A stretch of 64,000 nucleotides of DNA from Escherichia coli (GTDB lineage: Bacteria > Pseudomonadota > Gammaproteobacteria > Enterobacterales > Enterobacteriaceae). Location of the stretch: assembly GCF_051903065.1 (NCBI RefSeq), contig NZ_CP178439.1; one strand, given 5' to 3'. Positions 1 through 54,843 of this stretch are shown piece after piece; within the stretch, counting starts at the first letter, position 1, and each line of letters opens with the position of its first letter. The position numbers and the translations under genes were made by a program. The notes under the pieces are model-generated. The model was not told where the DNA came from. It saw only the letters and a program-made list of their open reading frames with translations, and did no database searches.

Positions 1-759
1 GCGGCATTGATGTTCGGCTCATTTGCTATCGGAGAGGGTGACGAGTTCTCTGATATCGAATTCGCAGTGTTCATCCAGGATGACCATTTTGAAAATTTCG
101 ATCAGCGCTCGTGGCTTAATGCCGTAAGTCCGGTTGCTGCTTACTTTCCGGACGACTTCGGCCACCACACCGCACTTTTTGAAAACGGCATTCGCGGTGA
201 ATTCCATTTCATGCGAAAATCGGACATACCGGTCATTTCCACTTGGCAAGGCTATGGGTGGTTTCCCTCGCTTGAGGCGGCTGTTTTGTTGGACCGATCA
301 GGAGAGTTGTCAAGGTACGCAAGCGCTCTCGTGGGCGGTCCCCCGATACGTGAAGGCGCGCCGCTGGTGGAAGGGCTTGTGTTGAACCTCATCAGCCTGA
401 TGCTCTTTGGGGCCAATCTTTTAAATCGGGGAGAGTACGCTCGCGCCTGGGCTTTGCTCAGCAAAGCACATGAAAACCTACTCAAGCTGGTTCGACTCCA
501 CGAAGGGGCAACAGACCACTGGCCGACACCTTCACGCGCGCTCGAAAAGGATATCTCGGAGGACTCGTATAATCGCTATCTGGCATGCACAAGCAGTGCA
601 GAACCAAGAGCACTATGTGCAGCCTATCATCAAACGTGGACGTGGAGTCTCGAATTGTTCAAGAGCGTGACAGAACCTCTGAATATCGAGCTTCCGAGAA
701 CTGTAATTGCGCAGGCAAAAAGGTTGCTCAATGAGTCTGCGACGCCGCACAACAAGTAA
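1..759 (+). CDS. lnu(F): Lincosamide nucleotidyltransferase, Lnu(F)-like; 5' end lies outside the window
   Basis: ORF 7..759 open to the window edge; nucleotidyltransferase motif FGSFAIGEGDEFSDIEF; recognised as Lnu(F)-like from memory; followed by attC-like and 3'-CS-like sequence. Confidence 0.6.
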   Translation, partial: AALMFGSFAIGEGDEFSDIEFAVFIQDDHFENFDQRSWLNAVSPVAAYFPDDFGHHTALFENGIRGEFHFMRKSDIPVISTWQGYGWFPSLEAAVLLDRSGELSRYASALVGGPPIREGAPLVEGLVLNLISLMLFGANLLNRGEYARAWALLSKAHENLLKLVRLHEGATDHWPTPSRALEKDISEDSYNRYLACTSSAEPRALCAAYHQTWTWSLELFKSVTEPLNIELPRTVIAQAKRLLNESATPHNK

Positions 760-848
760 ATCCAGCGGACGCATAAAAACGCGCCGCTGATTTTGACGTT
801 AGATGCACTAAGCACATAATTGCTCACAGCCAAACTATCAGGTCAAGT
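760..848 (+). other. Cassette attC remnant plus first bases of class 1 integron 3'-conserved segment, cut by IS26
   Basis: Sequence gttagatgcactaagcacataattgctcacagccaaactatcaggtcaagt matches the start of the 3'-CS as I recall it; abuts the IS26 end at 849. Confidence 0.45.
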
Positions 849-1668
849 GGCACTGTTGCAAATAGTCGGTGGTGATAAACTTATCATCCCCTTTTGCTGA
901 TGGAGCTGCACATGAACCCATTCAAAGGCCGGCATTTTCAGCGTGACATCATTCTGTGGGCCGTACGCTGGTACTGCAAATACGGCATCAGTTACCGTGA
1001 GCTGCAGGAGATGCTGGCTGAACGCGGAGTGAATGTCGATCACTCCACGATTTACCGCTGGGTTCAGCGTTATGCGCCTGAAATGGAAAAACGGCTGCGC
1101 TGGTACTGGCGTAACCCTTCCGATCTTTGCCCGTGGCACATGGATGAAACCTACGTGAAGGTCAATGGCCGCTGGGCGTATCTGTACCGGGCCGTCGACA
1201 GCCGGGGCCGCACTGTCGATTTTTATCTCTCCTCCCGTCGTAACAGCAAAGCTGCATACCGGTTTCTGGGTAAAATCCTCAACAACGTGAAGAAGTGGCA
1301 GATCCCGCGATTCATCAACACGGATAAAGCGCCCGCCTATGGTCGCGCGCTTGCTCTGCTCAAACGCGAAGGCCGGTGCCCGTCTGACGTTGAACACCGA
1401 CAGATTAAGTACCGGAACAACGTGATTGAATGCGATCATGGCAAACTGAAACGGATAATCGGCGCCACGCTGGGATTTAAATCCATGAAGACGGCTTACG
1501 CCACCATCAAAGGTATTGAGGTGATGCGTGCACTACGCAAAGGCCAGGCCTCAGCATTTTATTATGGTGATCCCCTGGGCGAAATGCGCCTGGTAAGCAG
1601 AGTTTTTGAAATGTAAGGCCTTTGAATAAGACAAAAGGCTGCCTCATCGCTAACTTTGCAACAGTGCC
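849..1668 (+). mobile_element. tnpA: IS26 copy 1 (820 bp), transposase CDS 912..1616, Gly at residue 184 (KRIIGATLG)
   Basis: Terminal inverted repeats GGCACTGTTGCAAA at 849 and TTTGCAACAGTGCC ending 1668; 234-aa Tnp26 ORF; flanks ggtcaagt / catttatg do not match. Confidence 0.95.
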
Positions 1669-1928
1669 CATTTATGAATGTTCCTGTTATGGCTTATGTT
1701 CAAGAAAGCATTGCCCCTGAAATGATGGGCAAGGTGTTTTCCCTTTTGATGACCGCCATGACTCTTTCTATGCCGATAGGCTTACTTGTTGCAGGTCCGG
1801 TTGTTGAGGTTATAGGTGTTAATACATGGTTTTTCTGGTCTGGTGTTGCGTTGATAGTAAACGCTGTTCTCTGCCGCATTCTGACACGACGCTATGACAA
1901 AGTAACAATGAAACCGCAAGTGGACTGA
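1669..1928 (+). pseudogene. mef(B): C-terminal fragment of an MFS macrolide-efflux protein, Mef(B)-like, 5'-truncated by IS26
   Basis: Hydrophobic C-terminal 86 codons in frame directly after the IS26 end; sul3 nearby fits the known sul3/mef(B) association. Confidence 0.5.
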
Positions 1929-2073: not shown

Positions 2074-2937
2074 ATGATACCTAATAGCGAAAATAAAAGA
2101 GTATGGTTTATTACCGGAGCAAGCAAGGGGCTTGGCTATGCTTTTACATGCGCCGCCTTGAAAGCCGGGGATAAAGTTGTTGCAGTTGCAAGGACTATCG
2201 ATAATTTGGCGAAGCTAGAAGAAACATATCAAGAGAGCTTACTGCCATTAAACCTCGATGTTACAGATAGGGAGGCTGTTTTTTCTACGGTTGAAACAGC
2301 AGTTAAACATTTCGGTAGGCTTGATATTGTTGTTAATAATGCGGGTATCATGACTATGGGTATGATTGAAGAACTAAACGAATCCGATGCTCGGAAACTA
2401 ATGGACACAAACTTTTTTGGAGCTCTTTGGGTTTGTCAGGCAGTGATGCCCTATTTGAGGTCGCAGCGTTCTGGACATATCATACAGATTACAAGCATTG
2501 GCGCTATTATCTCGGGTCCGATGTCTGGTATTTACAGTGCAAGTAAATTTGCGCTGGAAGGAATGAGTGAAGCCTTAGCAAAAGAAGCGGAACATTTCGG
2601 AGTGAAACTCACTATGGTGGAACCAGGAGGATATTGGACAGATTTATACACTTCGATGAGTTACAGCAATCCATTAGATTCATACGGTACACTGCGCGAT
2701 GAGCTGGCGAAACAGTATTCCGAAGATTCGGTCGATAGTGATCCTTCCTTGGCAGCGGAAGCCCTTATGAAATTAGTAGCCAGCAATAATCCGCCTTTGA
2801 GGCTTATCCTTGGCAGCATGGTATACGATTTGGCGATGGATACCTTAAAAGCACGGATGGCTACCTGGGAAGAATGGGAAGCTGTTAGCCGTGCATCAGA
2901 AAAGGCTATTCCTGCACCGGAGAGATATGGAGTATAA
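2074..2937 (+). CDS. Short-chain dehydrogenase/reductase (SDR) family oxidoreductase
   Basis: TGASKGLG cofactor motif, NNAG, and YSASK catalytic motif in a 287-aa ORF. Confidence 0.75.
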   Translation: MIPNSENKRVWFITGASKGLGYAFTCAALKAGDKVVAVARTIDNLAKLEETYQESLLPLNLDVTDREAVFSTVETAVKHFGRLDIVVNNAGIMTMGMIEELNESDARKLMDTNFFGALWVCQAVMPYLRSQRSGHIIQITSIGAIISGPMSGIYSASKFALEGMSEALAKEAEHFGVKLTMVEPGGYWTDLYTSMSYSNPLDSYGTLRDELAKQYSEDSVDSDPSLAAEALMKLVASNNPPLRLILGSMVYDLAMDTLKARMATWEEWEAVSRASEKAIPAPERYGV

Positions 2938-2974
2938 TACCAAACATGGTTTTTGAGGCAAGGACGAAACTATC

Positions 2975-3220
2975 ATGAAAATTGAAATTATGGAATATAA
3001 CCCGGATTGGACAAAGAATTTTGAAGAAGAGAAAATAAAATTGCTCCATTTTTTCGGTTCTCATGCCGTAGCCATTGAACATATCGGAAGCACGGCGATA
3101 CCCAATCAACGGGCGAAACCGGTTATAGATATATTTATTGGCGTTTCGCCTTTTGCTGAACTACCTTTTATCAGCGCATTTTTAATGCAAAGGAGTATCA
3201 CCACACTCCGACAGATATGA
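2975..3220 (+). pseudogene. GrpB/UPF0157-like nucleotidyltransferase, N-terminal fragment
   Basis: 81-aa ORF with EHIGSTAIP...KPVIDI motif; about half the expected family length. Confidence 0.35.
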
Positions 3221-3688
3221 CAGGCAGATATTTGTTTGCAAAATATACAAATGAAGTTTGGACCCATAATCTTCTTGCTTTGGTGTAGGTATAATACCCA
3301 AAAACGAAGTTTATGCGGAACAGGATAACACCTCGAAATCGGAGTTTATATGGCTTCGTGGGGGAGTTATGTGTTTGAGCTTTGTCGCATTAACGCGAAT
3401 CAGGGGTTGACGGCAGAAATAGACTGGAATTACACTTCTTGGAGTCGGCGTTGCCGGAAAATTCTGATTGGATTAGTTGTTCGGGGTGCGAAAACAGTCG
3501 TAGTTCGGGGAAAAAACCGAATTTTGACCCAAAACCGCGAAAAACTCGAAATGACAGTTCCTATCAGTTTTCATAATGAATTAAAACAAAAAAATTAGGC
3601 TGCAAAGATAGGGAAAATGTGTCAATTTGCGTAAGTGATAATTAGTCAATTAAGATAAATGCTACTTTTGTAATCAAAGCAAAATGAT

Positions 3689-4480
3689 ATGAGCAAGATT
3701 TTTGGAATCGTAAATATAACCACCGATAGTTTTTCCGATGGAGGACTTTATTTAGATACAGATAAGGCAATTGAGCATGCTCTGCATTTGGTTGAAGATG
3801 GAGCAGATGTGATTGATTTGGGAGCCGCTTCCAGTAATCCTGATACAACTGAAGTGGGCGTTGTGGAAGAAATCAAAAGACTCAAACCTGTCATTAAGGC
3901 TTTAAAAGAAAAAGGCATTTCTATTTCTGTTGATACATTTAAACCTGAGGTTCAGAGTTTTTGCATAGAACAAAAGGTTGATTTTATTAATGATATTCAA
4001 GGTTTTCCTTATCCTGAGATTTATTCAGGCTTGGCAAAGTCAGATTGCAAACTTGTGTTGATGCACTCCGTTCAGCGAATTGGTGCAGCTACTAAAGTTG
4101 AAACGAATCCGGAAGAGGTTTTTACTTCCATGATGGAATTTTTTAAAGAAAGAATTGCTGCTTTAGTTGAGGCTGGTGTAAAGCGTGAACGAATTATTCT
4201 TGATCCGGGTATGGGCTTCTTTTTAGGCTCTAATCCAGAAACATCTATTCTTGTTTTGAAGCGTTTCCCTGAAATTCAAGAAGCTTTTAATTTGCAAGTA
4301 ATGATTGCAGTGTCACGGAAATCATTCTTAGGTAAAATAACTGGAACCGATGTGAAATCTCGTTTAGCACCAACTCTTGCAGCAGAAATGTATGCATACA
4401 AAAAAGGTGCAGATTATCTCCGCACCCATGATGTTAAGTCTTTATCAGATGCCTTGAAAATATCCAAAGCCCTAGGTTAG
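3689..4480 (+). CDS. sul3: Dihydropteroate synthase Sul3 (sulfonamide resistance)
   Basis: 263-aa ORF starting MSKIFGIVNITTDSFSDGG, recognised as Sul3; DHPS fold motifs. Confidence 0.9.
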   Translation: MSKIFGIVNITTDSFSDGGLYLDTDKAIEHALHLVEDGADVIDLGAASSNPDTTEVGVVEEIKRLKPVIKALKEKGISISVDTFKPEVQSFCIEQKVDFINDIQGFPYPEIYSGLAKSDCKLVLMHSVQRIGAATKVETNPEEVFTSMMEFFKERIAALVEAGVKRERIILDPGMGFFLGSNPETSILVLKRFPEIQEAFNLQVMIAVSRKSFLGKITGTDVKSRLAPTLAAEMYAYKKGADYLRTHDVKSLSDALKISKALG

Positions 4481-4701
4481 TTTTATTTTTTTAGCTTTCT
4501 AAATGAATATGCTATACTTGCTCTGAAGTTGTGTTGGCGTACTTGACTTAGGTCTGGATCTTTCGAACTGTTACTAAGAGGGTAATCATAGCCAAACATA
4601 AACTGGAAATGTCCTAATTCTAAACCTGTTCCAATACCTACACTATGGTGATGCTGCCAACTTACTGATTTAGTGTATGATGGTGTTTTTGAGGTGCTCC
4701 A

Positions 4702-4977
4702 GTGGCTTCTGTTTCTATCAGCTGTCCCTCCTGTTCAGCTACTGACGGGGTGGTGCGTAACGGCAAAAGCACCGCCGGACATCAGCGCTATCTCTGCTCT
4801 CACTGCCGTAAAACATGGCAACTGCAGTTCACTTACACCGCTTCTCAACCCGGTACGCACCAGAAAATCATTGATATGGCCATGAATGGCGTTGGATGCC
4901 GGGCAACCGCCCGCATTATGGGCGTTGGCCTCAACACGATTTTCCGCCATTTAAAAAACTCAGGCCGCAGTCGGTAA
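4702..4977 (+). CDS. insA: IS1 InsA
   Basis: 91-aa [43 protein letters not shown], zinc-finger InsA. Confidence 0.85.
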
Positions 4978-5399
4978 CCTCGCGCATACAGCCGGGCAGT
5001 GACGTCATCGTCTGCGCGGAAATGGACGAACAGTGGGGATACGTCGGGGCTAAATCGCGCCAGCGCTGGCTGTTTTACGCGTATGACAGGCTCCGGAAGA
5101 CGGTTGTTGCGCACGTATTCGGTGAACGCACTATGGCGACGCTGGGGCGTCTTATGAGCCTGCTGTCACCCTTTGACGTGGTGATATGGATGACGGATGG
5201 CTGGCCGCTGTATGAATCCCGCCTGAAGGGAAAGCTGCACGTAATCAGCAAGCGATATACGCAGCGAATTGAGCGGCATAACCTGAATCTGAGGCAGCAC
5301 CTGGCACGGCTGGGACGGAAGTCGCTGTCGTTCTCAAAATCGGTGGAGCTGCATGACAAAGTCATCGGGCATTATCTGAACATAAAACACTATCAATAA
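4896..5399 (+). CDS. insB: IS1 InsB reading frame (expressed as InsAB' by -1 frameshift)
   Basis: Overlapping downstream ORF inside IS1. Confidence 0.75.
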
Positions 5400-5442
5400 G
5401 TTGGAGTCATTACCGGAGAATTGTATCATTAACAGTCTAGTT

Positions 5443-6108
5443 CTAACGACTACCACTTTTAAGTATGTATTGAGCCAGTTTTATATTCAGGCACACCATA
5501 TTGCACTCTAGCTCTTTCATCATTCTTGAAGAACTCTTAATTAAGTATTCTTCAAGTGGGCCAGCATATGCCCCTGATGTCACGATCGTTAGTTGCGTAA
5601 GAGGATGAGTCAAACTCTCAATGCCCTTCAGGATGTCATTCTGGACAGCAGCAATATAAACAGGCGAAGCCGCAATCAAATATTCATCATTCGGGCTGGA
5701 CTGCATTAACTGGCTTATAGTTGCGCAACGGTTATGCTTACCTAGTGATTTTGTGATGGCTTTCCACCAGAGATCATGCCTGAATGGTACTTGATGAAAT
5801 GTCGCCTCGTAAGAGGGCACCCGATCTCGACTATTTAAAAACCCCATCCCGGCAGAGATTATCCACAACTCCAGATTTCTGGTTGAGTTTAAAATTTCCT
5901 TTGCCGTAGACCAGTGATTACCTGAATACAAGGACAATGCCGGTACCGCCTGATTACTTCTGGCGTCGTCTACAATGTTACTCCAGGCATATGCTGCGTC
6001 GTCCGGGGTTTGTTTTGGATCTATGTCCAATGTCGGCCAGACGTGGCCCTGATGATTCTTGCCCTTTGTACAGGAAGTGATTAAGTGTACTGAGCGTTCA
6101 GAGAACAT
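5443..6108 (-). CDS. Hypothetical protein (221 aa)
   Basis: Six-frame ORF in AT-rich backbone; no family recognised. Confidence 0.5.
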   Translation of the reverse strand: MFSERSVHLITSCTKGKNHQGHVWPTLDIDPKQTPDDAAYAWSNIVDDARSNQAVPALSLYSGNHWSTAKEILNSTRNLELWIISAGMGFLNSRDRVPSYEATFHQVPFRHDLWWKAITKSLGKHNRCATISQLMQSSPNDEYLIAASPVYIAAVQNDILKGIESLTHPLTQLTIVTSGAYAGPLEEYLIKSSSRMMKELECNMVCLNIKLAQYILKSGSR

Positions 6109-6165
6109 TATCTTCCTTACATACCCATAGAACAGCTTTCTAAGAACGGTGGGCTCGCCTGAAAA

Positions 6166-6546
6166 TTACAAATCAGCCCCTTTCACGGCATCATTTTGAT
6201 TCTTCGCGTCTGCCCCCAGTAAGATGACCGGTTTTCTGCATGACAGTGTTATTCCTAACAAACGCAACACAAAACCACGCCAGCCAGAGCAAATTTTTTC
6301 ATTTGCTGCGTAAAGCCTATTGTTTTCTCTTTTAAGCTTCGCCCACTCGTTACAGAGGGTAACATCATCAAGCGCTGTTATATGCTTCGCCTCACCTTCG
6401 ACGATAACGGTATGGATACCGTATGCTGTAAATCTCATACTATTTTCCAGAACCCAGTTGCGGTATTCGTCGAGTCCACCTTCGGAACCGGTAGCTCTGC
6501 GCCACATTTCAATTTGCTTGTGTGATGGGTCAAGTGTACTTGTCAT
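6166..6546 (-). CDS. Hypothetical protein (126 aa)
   Basis: ORF upstream of and co-oriented with 5443..6108; divergent from the 7189 operon. Confidence 0.5.
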   Translation of the reverse strand: MTSTLDPSHKQIEMWRRATGSEGGLDEYRNWVLENSMRFTAYGIHTVIVEGEAKHITALDDVTLCNEWAKLKRENNRLYAANEKICSGWRGFVLRLLGITLSCRKPVILLGADAKNQNDAVKGADL

Positions 6547-6814
6547 TGAAGCCTCGTCTCAGCGATAACGCTTGAAATAGCCCGCTTTGGTCATCATGAA
6601 ATTAGCCATCTGACTGGCGATTTGATTGTATCTTACTCATAGTGCCCTACCTATAGGTTAAAAAGGGGCATTTTCGCTTTATAGCGTGTTCAGCAGCATC
6701 AATCCTCCCAAGAAAGGCTGGCTTATTAAGCCGGTCCATCATTTTCTGTATATCTCTCATCAATTTTTATATCCGCCCTGGAGTGCACCGTTCAAGCACA
6801 CCGATTAGGCAGAT

Positions 6815-6875
6815 AGTCACTAGTTAACTCTTTACTAGTGACTAAATTCCATTGATATACGTGACAACGTCACGT
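6815..6875. promoter_or_regulatory. Two perfect palindromes (AGTCACTAGT-N9-ACTAGTGACT and ACGTGAC-AAC-GTCACGT) in the divergent intergenic region
   Basis: Read directly at 6815..6843 and 6859..6875; a third palindrome AGTAAAG-C-CTTTACT lies at 7084..7098. Confidence 0.35.
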
Positions 6876-7188
6876 CATGAAAGCTTATAAATGCCTATTT
6901 TTCATACAATGGGATTTAATTAGGAGTAAATCCCATAGGCTTACATAAGGATGACAATTAAAAGCGTTAAATATCAACCAGATAGAATGATTACCCCCAA
7001 TTAATGGGCTCATCACATTATTTCACTGGCTGGGGTTATTGCTGGCATATCTGAAAGTGCTAATATGTTAGTCATTAGTAATTAGTAAAGCCTTTACTAA
7101 ACGCGTTTCTACGTAAATTCTATAGGTTTTATAGTGTCCTACCTTTGCTCAAATCAAAATGTTCTGACATACCAAAATGGAGTGTAAA

Positions 7189-8007
7189 ATGACTCAAAAC
7201 CAGGGTTCTGAGCCAGTACCGGCGAGCCGGACAGGGCAGCTCATCAGCGCCCGGGATATGGCCATGCAGAAATTCGAAGAAGGGATGCGGTTAATCTCGG
7301 AAGCGTCGGAACTGTGCGGTCTCTCTCTCTTCACCAGCAGAATTATGCAGCCCAACGCATTTGGTCTTCCGTCGTCACTGGATCGCACCATCGAGGAGGG
7401 GCGTAAGGAAATTGACCGTAAAACGTGGAAAAGGCTCTTTGAAGAAACAGGTATGGACCGGTACTGGAACCATAAGCAAAAAGAAGCCTTTAACGAATCC
7501 CTTCGTACGGATCCGCCCGTCGCTTCCCTGGAGATTGTTAAGGGAACATTACAGCATGCACTGGCTAACAGACGAGACACCCTTGCAGAAGGTTTCGTTG
7601 ATGTTCTCAACAAGCTTGACCGAAGTTTCAAAAGCAATGCCAGGCAATATACAATGCCAAAAAAGCTTGTTCTTCGGGGGATTTTTCCTGGTGTGAACGT
7701 GCTGAGGTACAACGGTTTCTCGCAGGACAATCACTTTTGTTTACGCGACTTTGAGAATATTGTATGCATCTGTTCTGATACTCCAACACCTGCAACCGGC
7801 GGTGGGCTGAGTATGGTCGACAGGCTGACGGCCATGAGAAATACAGAATTCACAGGCGAGGTCAGTGATGAGAATGGCTGGCGGTGTCGCCTGTTTGAGA
7901 ATGGAAACGTTCATATTTGCATCGACAGTATCTCGCTTCTGAATGCTCTGAACGATCTTATCAGCATATATTTTGCAAACCAGCTTCCGGCCGCAGGAAA
8001 AAAATGA
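7189..8007 (+). CDS. Hypothetical protein (about 272 aa)
   Basis: ORF 7177..8007; ATG at 7189 has GGAG 6 nt upstream; stop overlaps next start (ATGA at 8004..8007). Confidence 0.55.
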   Translation: MTQNQGSEPVPASRTGQLISARDMAMQKFEEGMRLISEASELCGLSLFTSRIMQPNAFGLPSSLDRTIEEGRKEIDRKTWKRLFEETGMDRYWNHKQKEAFNESLRTDPPVASLEIVKGTLQHALANRRDTLAEGFVDVLNKLDRSFKSNARQYTMPKKLVLRGIFPGVNVLRYNGFSQDNHFCLRDFENIVCICSDTPTPATGGGLSMVDRLTAMRNTEFTGEVSDENGWRCRLFENGNVHICIDSISLLNALNDLISIYFANQLPAAGKK

Positions 8008-9209
8008 TGATTGAAAATGATAAAGAAAAAAGCCTGAACGATGCTACCCCGCCAGAGGTGCAGAATGACATCCGCAGCGAATCCACTGAAAAATCAAAGG
8101 AAATGGGTCGTTCAAGGTACTCATCTATCGCGATGATCGATTACTTCAATGCAATCGAACGTCTGTGCAAAGAGAAAGAAATTAACCCGGAAAATATCGA
8201 TCTGAGCTTCAAAGTTCACTGGCTCAGAAACGCTGTTGGCGGCTCGTTTGCAAGGTCACAGGAGATGTTCGCGGAGTACCAGAAGTATGTTAAAGAGGTT
8301 CCTGAAGAGGCCCGTTACCTGGATATACCCGATGAGGTAAAGGTTGCACTCGGCGATATTATCTCGTACATCACCTGGCACTACCGTAGAAGCTATACCG
8401 CAATACAGAATGATAGTGTTAAAAAAGCTGAAGCACGTAGCATGCAGCTGGAGGAGGAGGTAACGCAGCTGTTACAGCGGCTTGAGCAAAGCGCTACCGA
8501 TATGGATGAGCTGAAACTTGAGAATCAGGCACTACAGGGTCGATTAGAGATCCGGGACAGTACCGTCAAGGAGTTAGAAACAAGGCTGAATGTTGCCGAA
8601 GCAGAACTCGAAACCTGCCATCACCAGTTAGATAGCACACGGCATGAATTGAGCCTCGCACAGCAGTCAAATGACTCACTCTCCCAGCAACTGGCTGAAC
8701 GTAAAACAGAGATCGCTGGTCACCTTGAATATCAAAAAAAGCTGAACGAAGAGATCAACACGCAGCGTTCTGATAACGCCGGTCTTTCCAGACAATGCGA
8801 CCAGTTAAGTCAGACTGTGTCAGATACAAAGGCAGAGAGGGACAGGTTTGAACAGGAATTGATTGCTGCACAGAACCTTTGTACTGAGCTGAAAAGTGCA
8901 CTGTCCGGGAAAGAGGGTGACCTGGTGGCGGTGAATGCCGAGCTTACTGAACTCCATAAACTAAACGAGTCGCTGAGCGCCGACCTGAATAAAGTAACTT
9001 TGGTCAGCCAGGGCTATGAAGCGGAAGTGGCTGAACAAAGCAATGAACTCAAAACGCTCCAGGCCAAAGTAATGAAGCTGGAAGCTACCCTGGAGGCGGA
9101 GAAAACAATCTCAGAATCCCTAAAAGGCACCATTGATACATTAACTGGTGCAATGGCAGGGGGAGGTACTGGAAAGTCAAAACAGCCGCGTAGCAGAAAA
9201 ACATCATGA
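8004..9209 (+). CDS. Coiled-coil protein (401 aa), KfrA-like architecture
   Basis: Globular N-terminus then ~300 aa of heptad-like E/Q/L-rich sequence; translationally coupled to upstream gene. Confidence 0.55.
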   Translation: MMIENDKEKSLNDATPPEVQNDIRSESTEKSKEMGRSRYSSIAMIDYFNAIERLCKEKEINPENIDLSFKVHWLRNAVGGSFARSQEMFAEYQKYVKEVPEEARYLDIPDEVKVALGDIISYITWHYRRSYTAIQNDSVKKAEARSMQLEEEVTQLLQRLEQSATDMDELKLENQALQGRLEIRDSTVKELETRLNVAEAELETCHHQLDSTRHELSLAQQSNDSLSQQLAERKTEIAGHLEYQKKLNEEINTQRSDNAGLSRQCDQLSQTVSDTKAERDRFEQELIAAQNLCTELKSALSGKEGDLVAVNAELTELHKLNESLSADLNKVTLVSQGYEAEVAEQSNELKTLQAKVMKLEATLEAEKTISESLKGTIDTLTGAMAGGGTGKSKQPRSRKTS

Positions 9210-9272
9210 TAAATGAAGCCAGGTTGATACACTTCTCTGCATCCCCTGGCACATAAGAACTTCTGCGGACAT

Positions 9273-9476
9273 TCAGCCCGTCCGCAGGAGTTTTCGTCCT
9301 TCAGTCAACAAATGCACTACCTTTTTTGAGTCTCCACTTTCCAGAGCAGAAAACACGTTACCGATTCTACCAACAGCTTGTATCTGAGTGATAACCCCAG
9401 TCTTGTAATCATCTAGGATCCCTGACAGGAAAGCGTTCAGTTTTGTCTGTTCGCTTAGCGAAAGCATGTAGGACAT
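9273..9476 (-). CDS. Small hypothetical protein (67 aa)
   Basis: ORF immediately downstream of 9489..10808 on the same strand. Confidence 0.3.
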   Translation of the reverse strand: MSYMLSLSEQTKLNAFLSGILDDYKTGVITQIQAVGRIGNVFSALESGDSKKVVHLLTEGRKLLRTG

Positions 9477-9488
9477 TTTTTCTCCATT

Positions 9489-10808
9489 TTAAGCAGGTGT
9501 GTCAGTTGAAAGAGGTTTGCGTGATTCTGGAAAATGAGGCAGCACCATAGTTTCAGATGCTGTGGTCGCATCCCAGTGCCACCATCCATAAGGCCCATAT
9601 TCACGGTTGTAATAATCTTTTTTGAGTTGCTTTCGGGCCAGATAAGCAGGAGTGGCCATACCAAATACTTCCATCGGGAACGGCTTATCGCTTTTTGTGT
9701 CGAGCAGGTAGAAGTCAGGGAACACCTCACTAATACTCGCATCATAACGCATGGGCTTAACGTACTGCCGGTGCTCTGCATCCAGCTTTTCTGCAACAAC
9801 CGCCTCATAGGAGGAGTCCAGAGGTATCCAGTTCTCGCTAACGTGCATCAGCACAATTTGATGAGCTCTTACAGAAGGGCCTCTGCCGGTTACCGCAGCT
9901 GGTGACGTCAACGCAAAGACAACTATTTTCGCCCCGGATTTCCATGCTGCGTACTCCGATGAAAATCGTTTCTTTACGCTATCCCAATGGACTTCTGAAT
10001 TGAAAAAAATCAGCGGTAGCCCCCCAAAATTCCGCAGGGGTAAAAATTTAAGTGGCTTCTCATGCTTTTCAGCATCGTAGCGAGGTAAAACTGACAGGAG
10101 CATGAGACGTTTATCACTCATCGCCTGTGATGAAAGACGCTGAATTTGCGACTGAGCGACAGGTTGTTTCGGGTCAGGTACACCAATGAATAAATGGTCA
10201 CCTATGCAGGCTCTGCCGGTACGAATTTGTTTAGCGGTTTCAAGCAGACGATACCGTACCAGTGAATCGTTACGTTTCCCTGCCATTTTCGGGTACCAGA
10301 CATTCAGACCAGACTCTGTCCACAAAAGACTAAGCAAGCCCAGGAGGGTCATTGAGGCCTGACCTCCTTCTGGTCGCTGAACATGGGGCAGGGGAGGCAC
10401 TTCTGATTTTTCAGGAGGATCTTTCTCTGTCATACCGATACCGAGCCTTACAGCCATATCACCTTCGGTTGTAATCCGGACCACACCACTCGCATATCCT
10501 TTCAGGCCGGTATGCCGGGCATCAAGGGAGAAGAATACACAGGAAGGATCATGCTCAATGCCCGTGTTAGCGGCTTTGACGAGAATAAAGGCATCACCGT
10601 TCGGTAAAGCACGAACATAAAGTCGCTTTTCTCCTTTTCCACGACATCCGCAGGTGATGACTGATTTTTGACCTGAGGTGTGGTGTGCCTTTTTAAGAGC
10701 CGACTGCCACCCTTTAGCAAACTCATCCTGCGTTTGAAAGTCAGGTGAATACCTTTTGACGTTTGGATCGTCGTCGTAAGCAATCATCACTGCGAATTTT
10801 TGGCTCAT
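9489..10808 (-). CDS. Hypothetical protein (439 aa), conserved-plasmid-protein appearance
   Basis: Long ORF with AGGAGA RBS 6 nt upstream; co-oriented downstream of the Dcm-like gene. Confidence 0.6.
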   Translation of the reverse strand: MSQKFAVMIAYDDDPNVKRYSPDFQTQDEFAKGWQSALKKAHHTSGQKSVITCGCRGKGEKRLYVRALPNGDAFILVKAANTGIEHDPSCVFFSLDARHTGLKGYASGVVRITTEGDMAVRLGIGMTEKDPPEKSEVPPLPHVQRPEGGQASMTLLGLLSLLWTESGLNVWYPKMAGKRNDSLVRYRLLETAKQIRTGRACIGDHLFIGVPDPKQPVAQSQIQRLSSQAMSDKRLMLLSVLPRYDAEKHEKPLKFLPLRNFGGLPLIFFNSEVHWDSVKKRFSSEYAAWKSGAKIVVFALTSPAAVTGRGPSVRAHQIVLMHVSENWIPLDSSYEAVVAEKLDAEHRQYVKPMRYDASISEVFPDFYLLDTKSDKPFPMEVFGMATPAYLARKQLKKDYYNREYGPYGWWHWDATTASETMVLPHFPESRKPLSTDTPA

Positions 10809-18779: not shown

Positions 18780-19599
18780 GGCACTGTTGCAAATAGTCGG
18801 TGGTGATAAACTTATCATCCCCTTTTGCTGATGGAGCTGCACATGAACCCATTCAAAGGCCGGCATTTTCAGCGTGACATCATTCTGTGGGCCGTACGCT
18901 GGTACTGCAAATACGGCATCAGTTACCGTGAGCTGCAGGAGATGCTGGCTGAACGCGGAGTGAATGTCGATCACTCCACGATTTACCGCTGGGTTCAGCG
19001 TTATGCGCCTGAAATGGAAAAACGGCTGCGCTGGTACTGGCGTAACCCTTCCGATCTTTGCCCGTGGCACATGGATGAAACCTACGTGAAGGTCAATGGC
19101 CGCTGGGCGTATCTGTACCGGGCCGTCGACAGCCGGGGCCGCACTGTCGATTTTTATCTCTCCTCCCGTCGTAACAGCAAAGCTGCATACCGGTTTCTGG
19201 GTAAAATCCTCAACAACGTGAAGAAGTGGCAGATCCCGCGATTCATCAACACGGATAAAGCGCCCGCCTATGGTCGCGCGCTTGCTCTGCTCAAACGCGA
19301 AGGCCGGTGCCCGTCTGACGTTGAACACCGACAGATTAAGTACCGGAACAACGTGATTGAATGCGATCATGGCAAACTGAAACGGATAATCAACGCCACG
19401 CTGGGATTTAAATCCATGAAGACGGCTTACGCCACCATCAAAGGTATTGAGGTGATGCGTGCACTACGCAAAGGCCAGGCCTCAGCATTTTATTATGGTG
19501 ATCCCCTGGGCGAAATGCGCCTGGTAAGCAGAGTTTTTGAAATGTAAGGCCTTTGAATAAGACAAAAGGCTGCCTCATCGCTAACTTTGCAACAGTGCC
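18780..19599 (+). mobile_element. tnpA: IS26 copy 2, transposase CDS 18843..19547, Asn at residue 184 (KRIINATLG)
   Basis: Both 14-bp IRs present; GGC to AAC codon change relative to copy 1; flanks do not match. Confidence 0.95.
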
Positions 19600-25589: not shown

Positions 25590-26409
25590 GGCACTGTTGC
25601 AAAGTTAGCGATGAGGCAGCCTTTTGTCTTATTCAAAGGCCTTACATTTCAAAAACTCTGCTTACCAGGCGCATTTCGCCCAGGGGATCACCATAATAAA
25701 ATGCTGAGGCCTGGCCTTTGCGTAGTGCACGCATCACCTCAATACCTTTGATGGTGGCGTAAGCCGTCTTCATGGATTTAAATCCCAGCGTGGCGTTGAT
25801 TATCCGTTTCAGTTTGCCATGATCGCATTCAATCACGTTGTTCCGGTACTTAATCTGTCGGTGTTCAACGTCAGACGGGCACCGGCCTTCGCGTTTGAGC
25901 AGAGCAAGCGCGCGACCATAGGCGGGCGCTTTATCCGTGTTGATGAATCGCGGGATCTGCCACTTCTTCACGTTGTTGAGGATTTTACCCAGAAACCGGT
26001 ATGCAGCTTTGCTGTTACGACGGGAGGAGAGATAAAAATCGACAGTGCGGCCCCGGCTGTCGACGGCCCGGTACAGATACGCCCAGCGGCCATTGACCTT
26101 CACGTAGGTTTCATCCATGTGCCACGGGCAAAGATCGGAAGGGTTACGCCAGTACCAGCGCAGCCGTTTTTCCATTTCAGGCGCATAACGCTGAACCCAG
26201 CGGTAAATCGTGGAGTGATCGACATTCACTCCGCGTTCAGCCAGCATCTCCTGCAGCTCACGGTAACTGATGCCGTATTTGCAGTACCAGCGTACGGCCC
26301 ACAGAATGATGTCACGCTGAAAATGCCGGCCTTTGAATGGGTTCATGTGCAGCTCCATCAGCAAAAGGGGATGATAAGTTTATCACCACCGACTATTTGC
26401 AACAGTGCC
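25590..26409 (-). mobile_element. tnpA: IS26 copy 3, transposase CDS 25642..26346, Asn at residue 184
   Basis: IRs at both ends; inverted relative to copy 2. Confidence 0.95.
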
Positions 26410-26566
26410 CTTCATCATTATGAATATGAAAAAGCCGAATGCGGCGACTACCACATTTATCCCCGGGGCTATGGACGCAGCAACTTTGCAGGGCGCAATC
26501 GAAAAAGCTCGCGGGGCCTAAAGTTACTTTCACTTTTGATGAGTACGGCCATGCCGGTCATGGCCG

Positions 26567-27826
26567 CTACGCTTTTACAACGAGTAATTCATCCCAGCGG
26601 GTCGTATATCTCGGTGATAGCATGGCCTGTTTCATACGAAAATCCTGTTGAATGCCTTCCCCCAGCAAAAACAGAGCTCCGCGCTTTTCTTTATTGAACC
26701 GGTCCATAACTTTCATCAGTGCCTGACTGCCAGGCCTGGCCGGGCGCTCATCAAACAGGCTGAGTTGCTCTGTGCCGTCAGTCATAGCGGAGAGCATTAC
26801 CCCAGCTTTCGCATACGCTATCCCGGGTTTGTAAATGCGGTTCAGGATGGTCATGGCTGCATCAACCAGATCGCGGGTGTCCTGTGTAGCGGTAAGCGGC
26901 TCGATACCACAATTGCTGTAGCGGTTTTCACCTTGCGCATAATTGCTGCTCTGAATGAAGACTGTGATTTGACGGGTCCACGAGCCATCCTTGCGCAGCT
27001 GCTCTGCCGCCCGGGCGGTAAAAAATGAAACTGCCTCATGTAGCTTGCCTATCTCATTAAGGCGCTGACCAAAACTTCTGGAAACGATAATCTGTTGCCG
27101 GACAGGAGGGGATTCATGCAGCCGGAAACATGGTTCGCCATGCAGTTCCCGCCAGGTACGCTCGATTTCAACGCCAAAGCTTTTACGTAAAAAGCGAACG
27201 TCGCTATTATAAAAATCACCGGCAGTGATGATCCCGAAAGCCGACAGGCGTTCACTGATCTTTTGACCAATACCCCATATTTCTCTGGTACTGATAAGGC
27301 CCAGGAGCTTCCTGATCCTGGCCTGATCAGTCAAAACTACAACCCCGCCTGTAGCTGCCCATCGTTTGCTCGCATAGGTGCATAATTTAGCCAGGGTTTT
27401 GGTGCTTGAACACCCCACACCACAGGTAAGGGACAGATTATGAAGAAGTGTACTTCTGATCAACCGGCCGTAATCTTCATAATCTATTATCTTGTTCATG
27501 TTTTTCAATAACATGAAATTTTCATCTATGCTATATCGACTCGATTGAGGCGCGAAGCTTTCCAGCGTTTCATGGAAGCGATTTGAGTAGTCTTCATACA
27601 AAGTAAAGTTAGAGCTCCGGACTTCGATCTGGTGTTGCTGAATCAAATCCCTGCACTTAAAAATTGGGGTCCCACGCTTAATACCAACGCTTTTAGCCAG
27701 TTTATTCATTGCAATGACGGACGAATCGTTATTGCTGGCTATGATGAGCGGCTTTTTTGCCAGCTTGGGATCCATCGCACACTCAAATGCCGCATAGGCC
27801 CCGTTAATATCAACGTGCATGTACAT
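26567..27826 (-). CDS. umuC: Y-family translesion DNA polymerase subunit, UmuC/MucB/ImpB-like
   Basis: 419-aa protein, MYMHVDINGAYAAFE N-terminus typical of UmuC; overlaps the upstream umuD-like gene. Confidence 0.8.
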   Translation of the reverse strand: MYMHVDINGAYAAFECAMDPKLAKKPLIIASNNDSSVIAMNKLAKSVGIKRGTPIFKCRDLIQQHQIEVRSSNFTLYEDYSNRFHETLESFAPQSSRYSIDENFMLLKNMNKIIDYEDYGRLIRSTLLHNLSLTCGVGCSSTKTLAKLCTYASKRWAATGGVVVLTDQARIRKLLGLISTREIWGIGQKISERLSAFGIITAGDFYNSDVRFLRKSFGVEIERTWRELHGEPCFRLHESPPVRQQIIVSRSFGQRLNEIGKLHEAVSFFTARAAEQLRKDGSWTRQITVFIQSSNYAQGENRYSNCGIEPLTATQDTRDLVDAAMTILNRIYKPGIAYAKAGVMLSAMTDGTEQLSLFDERPARPGSQALMKVMDRFNKEKRGALFLLGEGIQQDFRMKQAMLSPRYTTRWDELLVVKA

Positions 27827-29955: not shown

Positions 29956-30775
29956 GGCACTGTTGCAAATAGTCGGTGGTGATAAACTTATCATCCCCTT
30001 TTGCTGATGGAGCTGCACATGAACCCATTCAAAGGCCGGCATTTTCAGCGTGACATCATTCTGTGGGCCGTACGCTGGTACTGCAAATACGGCATCAGTT
30101 ACCGTGAGCTGCAGGAGATGCTGGCTGAACGCGGAGTGAATGTCGATCACTCCACGATTTACCGCTGGGTTCAGCGTTATGCGCCTGAAATGGAAAAACG
30201 GCTGCGCTGGTACTGGCGTAACCCTTCCGATCTTTGCCCGTGGCACATGGATGAAACCTACGTGAAGGTCAATGGCCGCTGGGCGTATCTGTACCGGGCC
30301 GTCGACAGCCGGGGCCGCACTGTCGATTTTTATCTCTCCTCCCGTCGTAACAGCAAAGCTGCATACCGGTTTCTGGGTAAAATCCTCAACAACGTGAAGA
30401 AGTGGCAGATCCCGCGATTCATCAACACGGATAAAGCGCCCGCCTATGGTCGCGCGCTTGCTCTGCTCAAACGCGAAGGCCGGTGCCCGTCTGACGTTGA
30501 ACACCGACAGATTAAGTACCGGAACAACGTGATTGAATGCGATCATGGCAAACTGAAACGGATAATCAACGCCACGCTGGGATTTAAATCCATGAAGACG
30601 GCTTACGCCACCATCAAAGGTATTGAGGTGATGCGTGCACTACGCAAAGGCCAGGCCTCAGCATTTTATTATGGTGATCCCCTGGGCGAAATGCGCCTGG
30701 TAAGCAGAGTTTTTGAAATGTAAGGCCTTTGAATAAGACAAAAGGCTGCCTCATCGCTAACTTTGCAACAGTGCC
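29956..30775 (+). mobile_element. tnpA: IS26 copy 4, transposase CDS 30019..30723, Asn at residue 184
   Basis: Both IRs present; flanks ctttgcgt / cactgatc do not match. Confidence 0.95.
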
Positions 30776-31220
30776 CACTGATCCGCATGCCCGTTCCATA
30801 CAGAAGCTGGGCGAACAAACGATGCTCGCCTTCCAGAAAACCGAGGATGCGAACCACTTCATCCGGGGTCAGCACCACCGGCAAGCGCCGCGACGGCCGA
30901 GGTCTTCCGATCTCCTGAAGCCAGGGCAGATCCGTGCACAGCACCTTGCCGTAGAAGAACAGCAAGGCCGCCAATGCCTGACGATGCGTGGAGACCGAAA
31001 CCTTGCGCTCGTTCGCCAGCCAGGACAGAAATGCCTCGACTTCGCTGCTGCCCAAGGTTGCCGGGTGACGCACACCGTGGAAACGGATGAAGGCACGAAC
31101 CCAGTGGACATAAGCCTGTTCGGTTCGTAAACTGTAATGCAAGTAGCGTATGCGCTCACGCAACTGGTCCAGAACCTTGACCGAACGCAGCGGTGGTAAC
31201 GGCGCAGTGGCGGTTTTCAT
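30776..31220 (-). pseudogene. intI1: Class 1 integron integrase intI1, N-terminal 148 codons, truncated by IS26
   Basis: [49 protein letters not shown]... ends at the IS26 boundary. Confidence 0.85.
31105..31133 (+). promoter_or_regulatory. Integron cassette promoter Pc, hybrid type (-35 TGGACA, 17-bp spacer, -10 TAAACT); P2 lacks the GGG insertion
   Basis: Hexamers read at 31105..31110 and 31128..31133 inside intI1. Confidence 0.6.
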
Positions 31221-42538: not shown

Positions 42539-44440
42539 TTATGCAGCTTGATGATCTGAAGTGTTACCGGAAGTATCTTCGGTTCGTTTTTTGTTTGTGA
42601 TGGATTCACTTTTATCTCGCAAGGCTGAGTCTATGACGTTAAACACCTTTTCCCACCGAGAAATCCAACCGCATATAGGTTGAACACGACATTTTTCCAG
42701 GAAGAAATTTAATAAGTTAGTTTTTTTATTATCTTGCACTTTGAATGGTTCAATTACATCATCGGCATCAACAGATTTTCCTCCGATAAACCACGACGGA
42801 TGGGTTTCCATTGCGTCAGAAATGAAATCGTCAGGGAAGAGGCCTTCAATAGCAAAACCACTTCTTACAGAAATATAGTCTTTATTTGACTCAAATCTAA
42901 TTTGTTTTTTACCAAAGTAGCTTTGTAATCTGGTTCTTTCTTTGACCCCAGCTTCATCACCGTCAAAAACAGATATTACGGGGACATCTTTAGAAATAAA
43001 CTCGTAGCACCCTTTCAAGAATCCCCCAAGTTGACTGACTCCACCAAACTCATCAACTTTAGCACTCCTCAGAAAAGGCCATCTGTTCTTAAACTCATCA
43101 TCTTCAGATGTCAATTTCAATATTGATTCTATATATTGTTTGTCGGTGATACCTTCAACGAAAACTGCACTACTTGATATGTTAAAGAAATCAGAAAATC
43201 TGACCCCAAGATTTTCTCTTATGCTTGCAACTGCATTAAATCTTTTTTCATGCTTTTTATCTTTTGTAACACCGGCGTCATCTTTATATAACTCAATGAT
43301 CTTACTTGGCTCATCACTGACAAATGATAAGGAATGAGTTGTAATAAGAACATAAGCAACATCCATCAGTGATTTGAAAATGTGATTACATGACCGGCCT
43401 AATGAGGGATGCAAGAAAGACTCAGGCTCCTCAACCATCCAAATCGTTTTCTTACCTAGAGTAAGTTTTCTCTCTGAAATAGATTTAAATGAAGAAAATA
43501 AAGATAAGCATTGTAGCCCCATACCTTTACTCGATATCACATTCTCAATAGTATCTTTTATTGAAACCTCAAAGCGACCAAATAACTCATCAAGAGATGG
43601 CGGAGCTTTAATAATAAAGCTACAGTCATCTATACCGCTTAGAATCATTTCATTTGTTATCTTTTCAGATACTTCCAACAGTTTATCATGAATCACTTGA
43701 ACCGATGTTTTCATGGCTGAAGCTACTTCACTCCTAACATATGGAACTAATAGATTATGATATATATCATCAATACTTTTTGACGATGGTATATACACAC
43801 ACTCAAAACTAGAAAGTATTTTTTCTATGAACCTTCTTTCAACAGATGTATACATGGAGGAAGTTACTTCAGGTTTCCTCTTGTAACCTTTAAAGACAGT
43901 GTAAAAGTAATTGTTTTTATTAGATATTGTCAGATGTACGGTCACTTCGTTTTGAGGTGACTTTAACCTGGAGTCATCAATCATGTTAAACAGCTGCAAA
44001 TATCTATCTCTCAAACTTAGCTTTCTGCCTCTTGATTGAGTTGGTTTTGATTCTTGTTGTTTAGAGCTGCCATCATCAAATGAAATAGAATTACTAGGCT
44101 CTTCTTGCTCCCCTAAAACACCAAGTTCAATAATCGAGTCATCATCGTCATCATCATCGTCTTGGCTCAAATCCTCAGAGACATCATCTAGCTCACTTTC
44201 AGAAAAAGTAAATCTTACAGCAAAACTAGTTTGTCCTTGCTTAACACCATGTGGCTTATCTTTTTCATAGTCATATAAGTCAGGATTAAATTTTCCTTCA
44301 AAAAAAACCCTCATAGCTTTTAATAGGTTTGTTTTACCACTGTTGTTTTGCCCAACAATGGTTAATCCATTAAAGTTATCAGAGGATATCTCCCCTGAAA
44401 TAGACCTATACTGAGAAACTTTAAATGATACTATTTCCAT
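42539..44440 (-). CDS. OLD-family ABC-type ATPase fused to a TOPRIM nuclease domain (633 aa)
   Basis: Walker A GQNNSGKT, Walker B IWMVEEPESFLHP, H-loop ITTHS, then TOPRIM-like VFVEGITDKQ and FDGDEAG; eight-Asp run; AT-rich. Confidence 0.7.
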   Translation of the reverse strand: MEIVSFKVSQYRSISGEISSDNFNGLTIVGQNNSGKTNLLKAMRVFFEGKFNPDLYDYEKDKPHGVKQGQTSFAVRFTFSESELDDVSEDLSQDDDDDDDDSIIELGVLGEQEEPSNSISFDDGSSKQQESKPTQSRGRKLSLRDRYLQLFNMIDDSRLKSPQNEVTVHLTISNKNNYFYTVFKGYKRKPEVTSSMYTSVERRFIEKILSSFECVYIPSSKSIDDIYHNLLVPYVRSEVASAMKTSVQVIHDKLLEVSEKITNEMILSGIDDCSFIIKAPPSLDELFGRFEVSIKDTIENVISSKGMGLQCLSLFSSFKSISERKLTLGKKTIWMVEEPESFLHPSLGRSCNHIFKSLMDVAYVLITTHSLSFVSDEPSKIIELYKDDAGVTKDKKHEKRFNAVASIRENLGVRFSDFFNISSSAVFVEGITDKQYIESILKLTSEDDEFKNRWPFLRSAKVDEFGGVSQLGGFLKGCYEFISKDVPVISVFDGDEAGVKERTRLQSYFGKKQIRFESNKDYISVRSGFAIEGLFPDDFISDAMETHPSWFIGGKSVDADDVIEPFKVQDNKKTNLLNFFLEKCRVQPICGWISRWEKVFNVIDSALRDKSESITNKKRTEDTSGNTSDHQAA

Positions 44441-44545: not shown

Positions 44546-45055
44546 TTATTTTCGCCAGAAAGCCCACCATGCATGTTGTTTGTCCTGAAGTGCTGCTTTA
44601 TCCTGAAGCAATTCAGCACTCACTGCCCCCTGAAGCACAGAAACGGCGTTTCTCGCGGCATTGCGACAGGAATCAATAACCTCTGGTTCGTTGGGCTTTC
44701 TGAGCAGGATAAATTGCGATACTTTGGACTGAGTATCAAAAGCATAGATTCGCAATTCAGGGGAGGATGTCAGGCTTACAATATTATGCAACCGCATATA
44801 ATTGGTGTAGTCCTTGCTACTTGGATCACATGATTCATAAAGATATTTCTGCATTAGCGTTTGCGATGAAGAAAGAAAATCTATATAGCGGTCAGTTTTT
44901 TTATCTATATCCCGCAGTCGCTGAGCTATTGCATCTTTTCTTATTTCGTGGCAGTGTGTTAATTTCAGTGTAATCCAGCCACCAACAATGGTGATTAATG
45001 CACCCAGCCCAATTTTAACGGCATTATCAGCCACATCTACCCACTCAGTTGCCAT
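44546..45055 (-). CDS. Hypothetical protein with N-terminal TM helix (169 aa)
   Basis: ORF 105 bp upstream of and co-oriented with the OLD-like gene. Confidence 0.45.
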   Translation of the reverse strand: MATEWVDVADNAVKIGLGALITIVGGWITLKLTHCHEIRKDAIAQRLRDIDKKTDRYIDFLSSSQTLMQKYLYESCDPSSKDYTNYMRLHNIVSLTSSPELRIYAFDTQSKVSQFILLRKPNEPEVIDSCRNAARNAVSVLQGAVSAELLQDKAALQDKQHAWWAFWRK

Positions 45056-53317: not shown

Positions 53318-54137
53318 GGCACTGTTGCAAATAGTCGGTGGTGATAAACTTATCATCCCCTTTTGCTGATGGAGCTGCACATGAACCCATTCAAAGGCCG
53401 GCATTTTCAGCGTGACATCATTCTGTGGGCCGTACGCTGGTACTGCAAATACGGCATCAGTTACCGTGAGCTGCAGGAGATGCTGGCTGAACGCGGAGTG
53501 AATGTCGATCACTCCACGATTTACCGCTGGGTTCAGCGTTATGCGCCTGAAATGGAAAAACGGCTGCGCTGGTACTGGCGTAACCCTTCCGATCTTTGCC
53601 CGTGGCACATGGATGAAACCTACGTGAAGGTCAATGGCCGCTGGGCGTATCTGTACCGGGCCGTCGACAGCCGGGGCCGCACTGTCGATTTTTATCTCTC
53701 CTCCCGTCGTAACAGCAAAGCTGCATACCGGTTTCTGGGTAAAATCCTCAACAACGTGAAGAAGTGGCAGATCCCGCGATTCATCAACACGGATAAAGCG
53801 CCCGCCTATGGTCGCGCGCTTGCTCTGCTCAAACGCGAAGGCCGGTGCCCGTCTGACGTTGAACACCGACAGATTAAGTACCGGAACAACGTGATTGAAT
53901 GCGATCATGGCAAACTGAAACGGATAATCAACGCCACGCTGGGATTTAAATCCATGAAGACGGCTTACGCCACCATCAAAGGTATTGAGGTGATGCGTGC
54001 ACTACGCAAAGGCCAGGCCTCAGCATTTTATTATGGTGATCCCCTGGGCGAAATGCGCCTGGTAAGCAGAGTTTTTGAAATGTAAGGCCTTTGAATAAGA
54101 CAAAAGGCTGCCTCATCGCTAACTTTGCAACAGTGCC
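53318..54137 (+). mobile_element. tnpA: IS26 copy 9, transposase CDS 53381..54085, Asn at residue 184
   Basis: Both IRs present; flanks do not match. Confidence 0.95.
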
Positions 54138-54843
54138 TGATGAAGCCGGGTGTGCCGGTGATCCCAAGCGCTTCGCCCAGCTGCATGTTGCCGGAGATCA
54201 CGTTTTCATATCGGTTTTTTTCCCTGTCAGAAAACGTGCTGTTAAACCCTGACTTATCCACCACAGTATTAAAGTCGCTGAGTTCGAATTTGCGTTGAGA
54301 GGTCATGAAGGTATGAGCCACAGCCATCAGGTTGTTGTGGTATTTACGATAGGCTTCAGCACCGAAATTCTGATAGACGTGCAGACCCGTAGCGGCCCCC
54401 ATGGCAGATACAGGTTTTGAACCGGCAAAAATCGGGAATTCTTTAAAGAAGAATTTTACATCTTTGCTCTGATTCATTACCGATTCAACAACAGGTGTAA
54501 CCCGCATGCAGTAAATACACTGATAGTCGAAGAACTCGATTACCGCGACGTCGGCGTCATCCGGGCCGATGTTTGGCGTCTCCTTGGTATCCAGCAGAGC
54601 TGGCGCATATGGAATTATTCGTTCCACTGAGGCACTTACGTTCTGATTTTCCAGCGCCTTACCTGCTTCCACTAAATAATGGGGATTTTTTACCAGGTAA
54701 GTAGCGGCAATTTTGCCAATTTCTTCCTCACTGAGCACCTTCGGTTTAAAATAAGTTGCCGCGATTAACGCCGAGGCAGCGGTAGCAATTACCGCAGAAA
54801 TTAAAATCGTGGCCATCGGTTTTAAATAAAATTCTTTAGACAT
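54138..54843 (-). pseudogene. Thioredoxin-fold DsbA/DsbC-like protein, 3'-truncated by IS26
   Basis: CIYC active-site motif, N-terminal TM/signal; reading frame runs into IS26. Confidence 0.55.

Follow-up and report, generated by a model that had tools for sequence, protein, structure and literature searches.

The stretch of Escherichia coli DNA analysed here (64,000 nucleotides of contig NZ_CP178439.1, referred to below as the window) opens within a gene cassette resembling lnu(F), which runs straight into the start of a class 1 integron 3'-conserved segment (3'-CS) that is in turn cut by IS26. As lnu(F) is usually reported together with aadA2 and no aadA cassette is visible between lnu(F) and the 3'-CS, an earlier note on this sequence suggested that the array is atypical or has suffered a deletion. 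The locus therefore raises the question of whether a cassette has been lost at this junction or whether such arrays are normally organised in this way and, if so, how the boundary with IS26 arose.

The identity of the gene is clear. The lnu(F) coding sequence (linG allele) occupies positions 1-759 on the plus strand and comprises codons 22-273 and a TAA stop codon at 757-759, while the first 21 codons fall upstream of the window edge. Positions 1-756 form a stop-free frame of 252 codons, and the resulting 252 aa translation matches the NCBIfam model NF000119 for Lnu(F) across profile positions 22-273 of 273 with a score of 563.1 bits, which exceeds the cut-off of 450 bits even with 21 N-terminal codons missing. 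Scores for the next-best families, Lnu(B), Lnu(G) and Lnu(H), are 151-160 bits and fall below their respective cut-offs. At the nucleotide level, the gene is 100% identical to records annotated as lnu(F) WP_000939727.1, and this identity to the reference allele predicts a lincosamide O-nucleotidyltransferase that would inactivate lincomycin and clindamycin. The window holds the final 798 bp of the 937 bp cassette (1-798, plus strand), whose boundaries lie at the G/TT of GTTRRRY core sites (the slash marks the join): the 3' boundary is G798/TTAGAT in the window, while the 5' boundary is G/TTGTGC in plasmid pMUR050, where the cassette begins (G/TTGTGCT) after the attC site of aadA2.

The cassette ends in a complete attC site (747-804, plus strand), which is of the typical short type and consists of the last lnu(F) codons and the next 45 nt. 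Its R'' site, GCACAAC (747-753), and its R' site, GTTAGAT (798-804), flank an imperfect inverted repeat (758-793) that contains bulged bases. In pMUR050, the lnu(F) cassette opens with the core site GTTGTGC, to which R'' is exactly complementary, as must be the case for a genuine cassette, and the bottom strand of the attC site folds as DNA into the expected hairpin (-13.5 kcal/mol, z = -2.83). Positions 799-848 (plus strand) are the first 50 nt of a class 1 integron 3'-CS; they start with the expected TTAGATGCACTAAGCAC after the last attC site and are identical at 50 of 50 positions to the pMUR050 3'-CS ahead of qacEdelta1. Both qacEdelta1 and sul1 are absent and IS26 is found from position 849 instead, which makes 799-848 a 3'-CS remnant rather than a 3'-CS. 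The earlier note was thus correct about the lnu(F)-like cassette end, the attC end behind the stop codon, the first bases of the 3'-CS and the lack of aadA before them, as the attC site is joined straight to the 3'-CS at G/TTAGAT. Since the attC site is complete and this join is canonical, no cassette was deleted there. The sole deletion at this point is that of the remainder of the 3'-CS (qacEdelta1-sul1), a state that is common and has already been described.

The element that cuts the 3'-CS is, as the note had recognised, IS26. It is a full 820 bp copy (849-1668, plus strand) with both 14 bp terminal inverted repeats GGCACTGTTGCAAA (IRL 849-862, IRR 1655-1668) and a single intact tnp26 ORF (912-1616) encoding the standard Tnp26 (G184), and its sequence is equal to that of four other IS26 copies in the window. 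The boundary with the 3'-CS reads GGTCAAGT/GGCACTG. An 8 bp target-site duplication is the signature of a simple untargeted IS26 insertion. The copy at 849-1668 lacks such an 8 bp duplication, being flanked by GGTCAAGT and CATTTATG, which indicates that it has since been engaged in deletion, cointegrate or recombination events. The missing duplication leaves its identity as IS26 unaffected.

Integrons with an uninterrupted 3'-CS provide a direct view of the state before IS26. A chimeric ancestor probe, in which the 3' end of lnu(F) was followed by an uninterrupted 3'-CS, was matched over its full length by six plasmids, with 100% identity in three cases. Plasmid pZN3-cfr-121kb (NZ_CP047346) carries intI1-aadA2-lnu(F)-qacEdelta1-sul1-orf5 and a Klebsiella pneumoniae IncF plasmid (CP137456) carries intI1-dfrA12-gcuF-aadA2-lnu(F)-qacEdelta1-sul1, and in both intact integrons the join between attC and 3'-CS is identical (100%) to that in the window. 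This establishes that lnu(F) abutting the 3'-CS is the normal state and that IS26 took away everything past nt 50. The complete integrons, including that of SGI1-W, have lnu(F) as the last cassette with the same attC/3'-CS join, but they keep an intact intI1 and a full 3'-CS (qacEdelta1, sul1, orf5), whereas the window has IS26 past nt 50.

The same order is found where IS26 is present. Nine loci with the exact junction were fetched, covering IncN (pMUR050), IncC, several IncF and IncHI2 plasmids and one E. coli chromosome. All nine share the arrangement IS26-ΔintI1-aadA2/aadA22-lnu(F)-3'-CS stub-IS26, in which aadA is sometimes frameshifted and the two IS26 copies are directly oriented, as in an IS26 pseudo-compound transposon. 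Together with the two intact integrons, all 11 related loci have attI1 and intI1 upstream of the cassette array. IncHI2 plasmids that are collinear with the window from position 1 to about 19.6 kb or 23.3 kb likewise carry, in those examined, aadA22 or a frameshifted aadA upstream. The usual association of lnu(F) with an aadA2-type cassette therefore holds at all nine junction loci, but aadA2 or aadA22 precedes lnu(F) in each of them and in both intact integrons. The comparison with reference arrays for which the earlier note had called also gives the order aadA2-lnu(F), with lnu(F) last, in published descriptions: SGI1-W contains 'aadA2-lnuF' cassettes in that order (PMC6769106), KF921555 is described as 'intI1-aadA2-linF-IS26-ISKp19(trunc.)-qnrS1' (PMC4129628), and an 'aadA22-lnu(F) cassette flanked by IS26' has been described with pYUHAP5-2, p160070-CTXM and pNDM33-1 (PMC7843705).

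The idea that an aadA cassette was lost between lnu(F) and the 3'-CS, or that the array is otherwise atypical, draws on the fact that lnu(F) is mostly accompanied by an aadA2-type cassette, as well as on arrays in which lnu(F) does come first. A synthetic probe in which the lnu(F)/attC region of the window was joined to aadA2 was covered to at least 80% by 18 plasmids, all of which carry another lnu(F) allele upstream of aadA1; the two cassettes are directly adjacent in one plasmid, while dfrA1 or sat2 lies between them in the rest. These arrays (annotated 'lnuF'; mostly lnu(F)-dfrA1-aadA1 or lnu(F)-sat2-aadA1) reside chiefly on plasmids of Proteus, Providencia and Acinetobacter. They resemble the locus in that a lincosamide nucleotidyltransferase cassette belonging to this family shares an array with an aadA cassette, but differ from it in the allele, in the upstream position of lnu(F) and in having aadA1 rather than aadA2. 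Their order may be the arrangement that the earlier note had in mind. For the allele in the window, however, no record among 72,556 plasmids spans an lnu(F)-aadA2 join. In addition, aadA2 or aadA22 lies upstream and never downstream in each examined record with this allele and junction, and the complete attC site is joined at G/TTAGAT exactly as in the intact integrons. We therefore regard an atypical array or a lost aadA cassette as very unlikely and take lnu(F) in its ordinary position at the end of the array.

This junction is frequent in public sequences. Window positions 1-860, which include 12 nt of IS26, are matched at 100% identity in many Salmonella, E. coli, Shigella, Enterobacter and E. 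albertii plasmids, so chance is not an issue for the match. At least 80% of the same segment was matched in 165 E. coli records, which derive from 160 of 5,426 complete genomes. A narrower probe of 181 nt (760-940), counted at a coverage of at least 80%, can only be matched where the lnu(F) attC site, the 3'-CS stub and IS26 occur together, and on this basis at least 211 PLSDB plasmids contain an identical (100%) junction. About 84 further plasmids (295 versus 211) cover at least 80% of positions 1-860 without a match to the junction probe, and these include the six records with an intact 3'-CS and the arrays with the other allele. At a larger scale, collinearity over the complete first 25 kb of the window was found in neither the plasmid nor the E. 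coli collection; the best match, to pCFSAN086837, reached 93% in five pieces.

The boundaries of the IS26-flanked segment are as uniform as its cassettes. The segment between the two IS26 copies measures 2,777-2,780 bp in eight of the nine loci, as determined by script, and these eight have both boundaries in common: IS26/TTCTACGG on the left and GGTCAAGT/IS26 on the right. The ninth locus (L001) has an extra left-hand deletion that reduces the inner segment to 2,274 bp, and the left boundary of the lnu(F) unit is therefore variable. The unit represented by pMUR050 (NC_007682), by the plasmids of PMC7843705 and by many IncHI2, IncF and IncC plasmids has the same lnu(F) allele, attC site and 3'-CS/IS26 boundary as the window; the right end of the pMUR050 inner segment shows no mismatch to positions 1-848, so there is no difference in the visible part, while the left 1.9 kb of the unit (ΔintI1, attI1 and aadA) and the left IS26 are predicted for the window from these relatives.

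The junction at nt 50 of the 3'-CS could in principle have arisen repeatedly through a site preference of IS26, in which case the copy in the window need not derive from the common unit. Truncation of the 3'-CS by IS26 is indeed frequent, and a second 3'-CS/IS26 boundary, at nt 72, exists in pNT1N25-76kb. This was the only other such boundary met, however, and its different position argues against a hotspot, as does the fact that the nt 50 boundary travels with the left boundary and the same cassettes in eight of the nine loci; the lack of any mismatch between 1-848 and the pMUR050 unit likewise speaks for common descent of the copy in the window. An IS26 hotspot at nt 50 was therefore rejected, and we consider an independent origin of this junction highly improbable. 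The pNT1N25-76kb locus (2170-3090) is itself an empty class 1 integron in which attI1 is directly joined to the 3'-CS, and its intI1 is also cut by IS26, at another position.

Collectively, these data make it very probable that window positions 1-848 are the right-hand end of a known 2.78 kb IS26-bounded integron remnant that goes back to one ancestral IS26 event and later spread. A single origin is suggested by the common boundaries. The full unit would consist of IS26, a ΔintI1 of 798 bp that includes Pc and attI1, aadA2 or aadA22, lnu(F), the first 50 nt of the 3'-CS and a second IS26. Judging from the relatives, the same ΔintI1-aadA segment should lie just outside the window, with aadA a few hundred bases before its edge, and lnu(F) would be the last cassette of an ordinary aadA2-lnu(F) array, which would explain why its attC site abuts the 3'-CS. 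At nt 50 of the 3'-CS, the proposed ancestral event would have removed qacEdelta1-sul1, by insertion and subsequent adjacent deletion or by recombination between IS26 copies, and a second IS26 would have truncated intI1. The visible 848 bp give no sign of a non-standard upstream region, and there is just a small chance that the upstream sequence of the source record differs, for example because it holds a new type of cassette or because IS26 has deleted further into the array, as on the left side of L001. The lnu(F) cassette is presumed to be promoterless, and lnu(F) and aadA would be transcribed from Pc in the retained 5'-CS, whose hexamers in pMUR050 are TGGACA-N17-TAAGCT. The truncation of intI1 means that the cassettes stay in place as long as no IntI1 is provided in trans, so that spread now depends on IS26.

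The DNA outside the unit shows how widely it has been redistributed. It varies between mef(B)-sul3, a Tn3 resolvase with blaTEM-1, qnrB4-psp, qnrS1 and a second ΔintI1-aadA2-3'-CS, such that the nine loci have at least five different right-hand and nine different left-hand flanks, and none of the nine has a duplication around the whole unit. Cointegrate formation and translocatable-unit behaviour are established properties of IS26, and its targeted conservative route is not expected to leave the whole unit flanked by a duplication. In light of this general knowledge, the varied contexts and the lack of a common duplication would fit IS26-mediated movement and reshuffling. Spread among replicons may thus have occurred by cointegrate formation, by movement as a translocatable unit or by homologous recombination between IS26 copies. 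In pMUR050 (3252-9960), another ΔintI1 lies beyond the right-hand IS26; it is truncated at the same point, TTCTACGG, and precedes aadA2-qacEdelta1-sul1-ISCR1. This sister integron, with intI1 cut at the identical position, adjoins the unit and hints at how the unit formed or was inserted there.

In the window, the right-hand flank of IS26 is the IS26-truncated sul3-mef(B) region known from sul3-type integrons, which matches the DNA from 1669 onward. The 3' end of mef(B) (1669-1928, plus strand; codons 325-409, corresponding to profile positions 325-409 of 409 of NCBIfam NF000051) is followed, up to 5400 and all on the plus strand, by an SDR oxidoreductase gene, a short GrpB-family ORF, sul3 and IS1. 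The same mef(B)-SDR-GrpB-sul3 context is present at loci L003, L004 and L009, and it is identical in several IncHI2 and IncF plasmids. The mef(B)-sul3 DNA is unrelated to the lnu(F) integron and is joined to it only through IS26. Because the window contains eight full copies and one partial copy of IS26 within 64 kb, and the copy at 849 has no target-site duplication, the wrong flanks might have been joined across IS26 during assembly, leaving lnu(F) and mef(B)-sul3 not truly adjacent. Such an artefact is extremely improbable, as the order lnu(F)-IS26-Δmef(B)-SDR-GrpB-sul3 recurs in several independently sequenced complete plasmids, and a mis-join across IS26 would not touch the 3'-CS/IS26 junction.

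The window as a whole forms part of an IncHI2-type plasmid and constitutes a multidrug-resistance region, with sul3, aph(6)-I, tet(A), a dfrA-arr array, aph(3')-Ia and ISCR2-floR as well as umuC, DsbA/DsbC-family and TraG-like genes. Four of its IS26 copies (18780-19599, 25590-26409, 29956-30775 and 53318-54137) have a GG to AA change at IS26 nt 613-614 that results in Tnp26 G184N, which we take to be the variant reported as more active, and this change separates them from the other four full copies. Two of these G184N copies, 25590-26409 (minus strand) and 53318-54137 (plus strand), lie in opposite orientation and have reverse-complementary right 8 bp flanks, CTTCATCA and TGATGAAG. When the reverse complement of 26410-26909 was joined in silico to 54146-54645, an uninterrupted umuC-DsbA-family backbone was obtained that matches 940 plasmids, many at 100%. 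The reverse-complementary flanks and the restored backbone together indicate that intramolecular replicative transposition of IS26 inverted about 26.9 kb (26410-53317). A partial IS26 (39111-39411) retains only the first 301 bp and ends abruptly at 39411.

IS26 has also cut another class 1 integron at both ends, leaving a remnant at 29956-33845. Its ΔintI1 (30776-31217, minus strand) encodes the N-terminal 148 codons and is accompanied by a DfrA1-like dfr cassette (31367-31846), a rifampin ADP-ribosyltransferase arr cassette (about 31960-32409) and the N-terminal part of a putative CmlA-like efflux gene, assigned by eye, which runs from about 32685 and is cut by IS26 at 33026. Further along, a gene at 42539-44437 (minus strand) encodes a 632 aa AAA_15 ATPase with weak matches to models of the OLD, AriA and GajA defence proteins (PADLOC best 1e-18; NCBIfam retron Eco8 effector 1.8e-6, far below the cut-off). 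The gene may encode an OLD-family nuclease or serve in defence. The 168 aa ORF upstream of it (44546-45052, minus strand) had no family match.

The aadA2-lnu(F)-IS26 unit to which the start of the window belongs is thus a known and widespread structure that has been described in print (PMC7843705; PMC4129628), and it is not an unusual array. The value of its recognition here lies in routine annotation, and no open question is addressed by it. There is a practical consequence in that PCR schemes with 3'-CS primers will miss this integron, since qacEdelta1 and sul1 are missing, while the fixed 3'-CS/IS26 boundary at nt 50 could serve as an epidemiological marker of the unit. The module combines lincosamide with streptomycin/spectinomycin resistance and, mobilised by IS26, occurs on multidrug-resistance plasmids in Enterobacterales of both food-animal and human origin.
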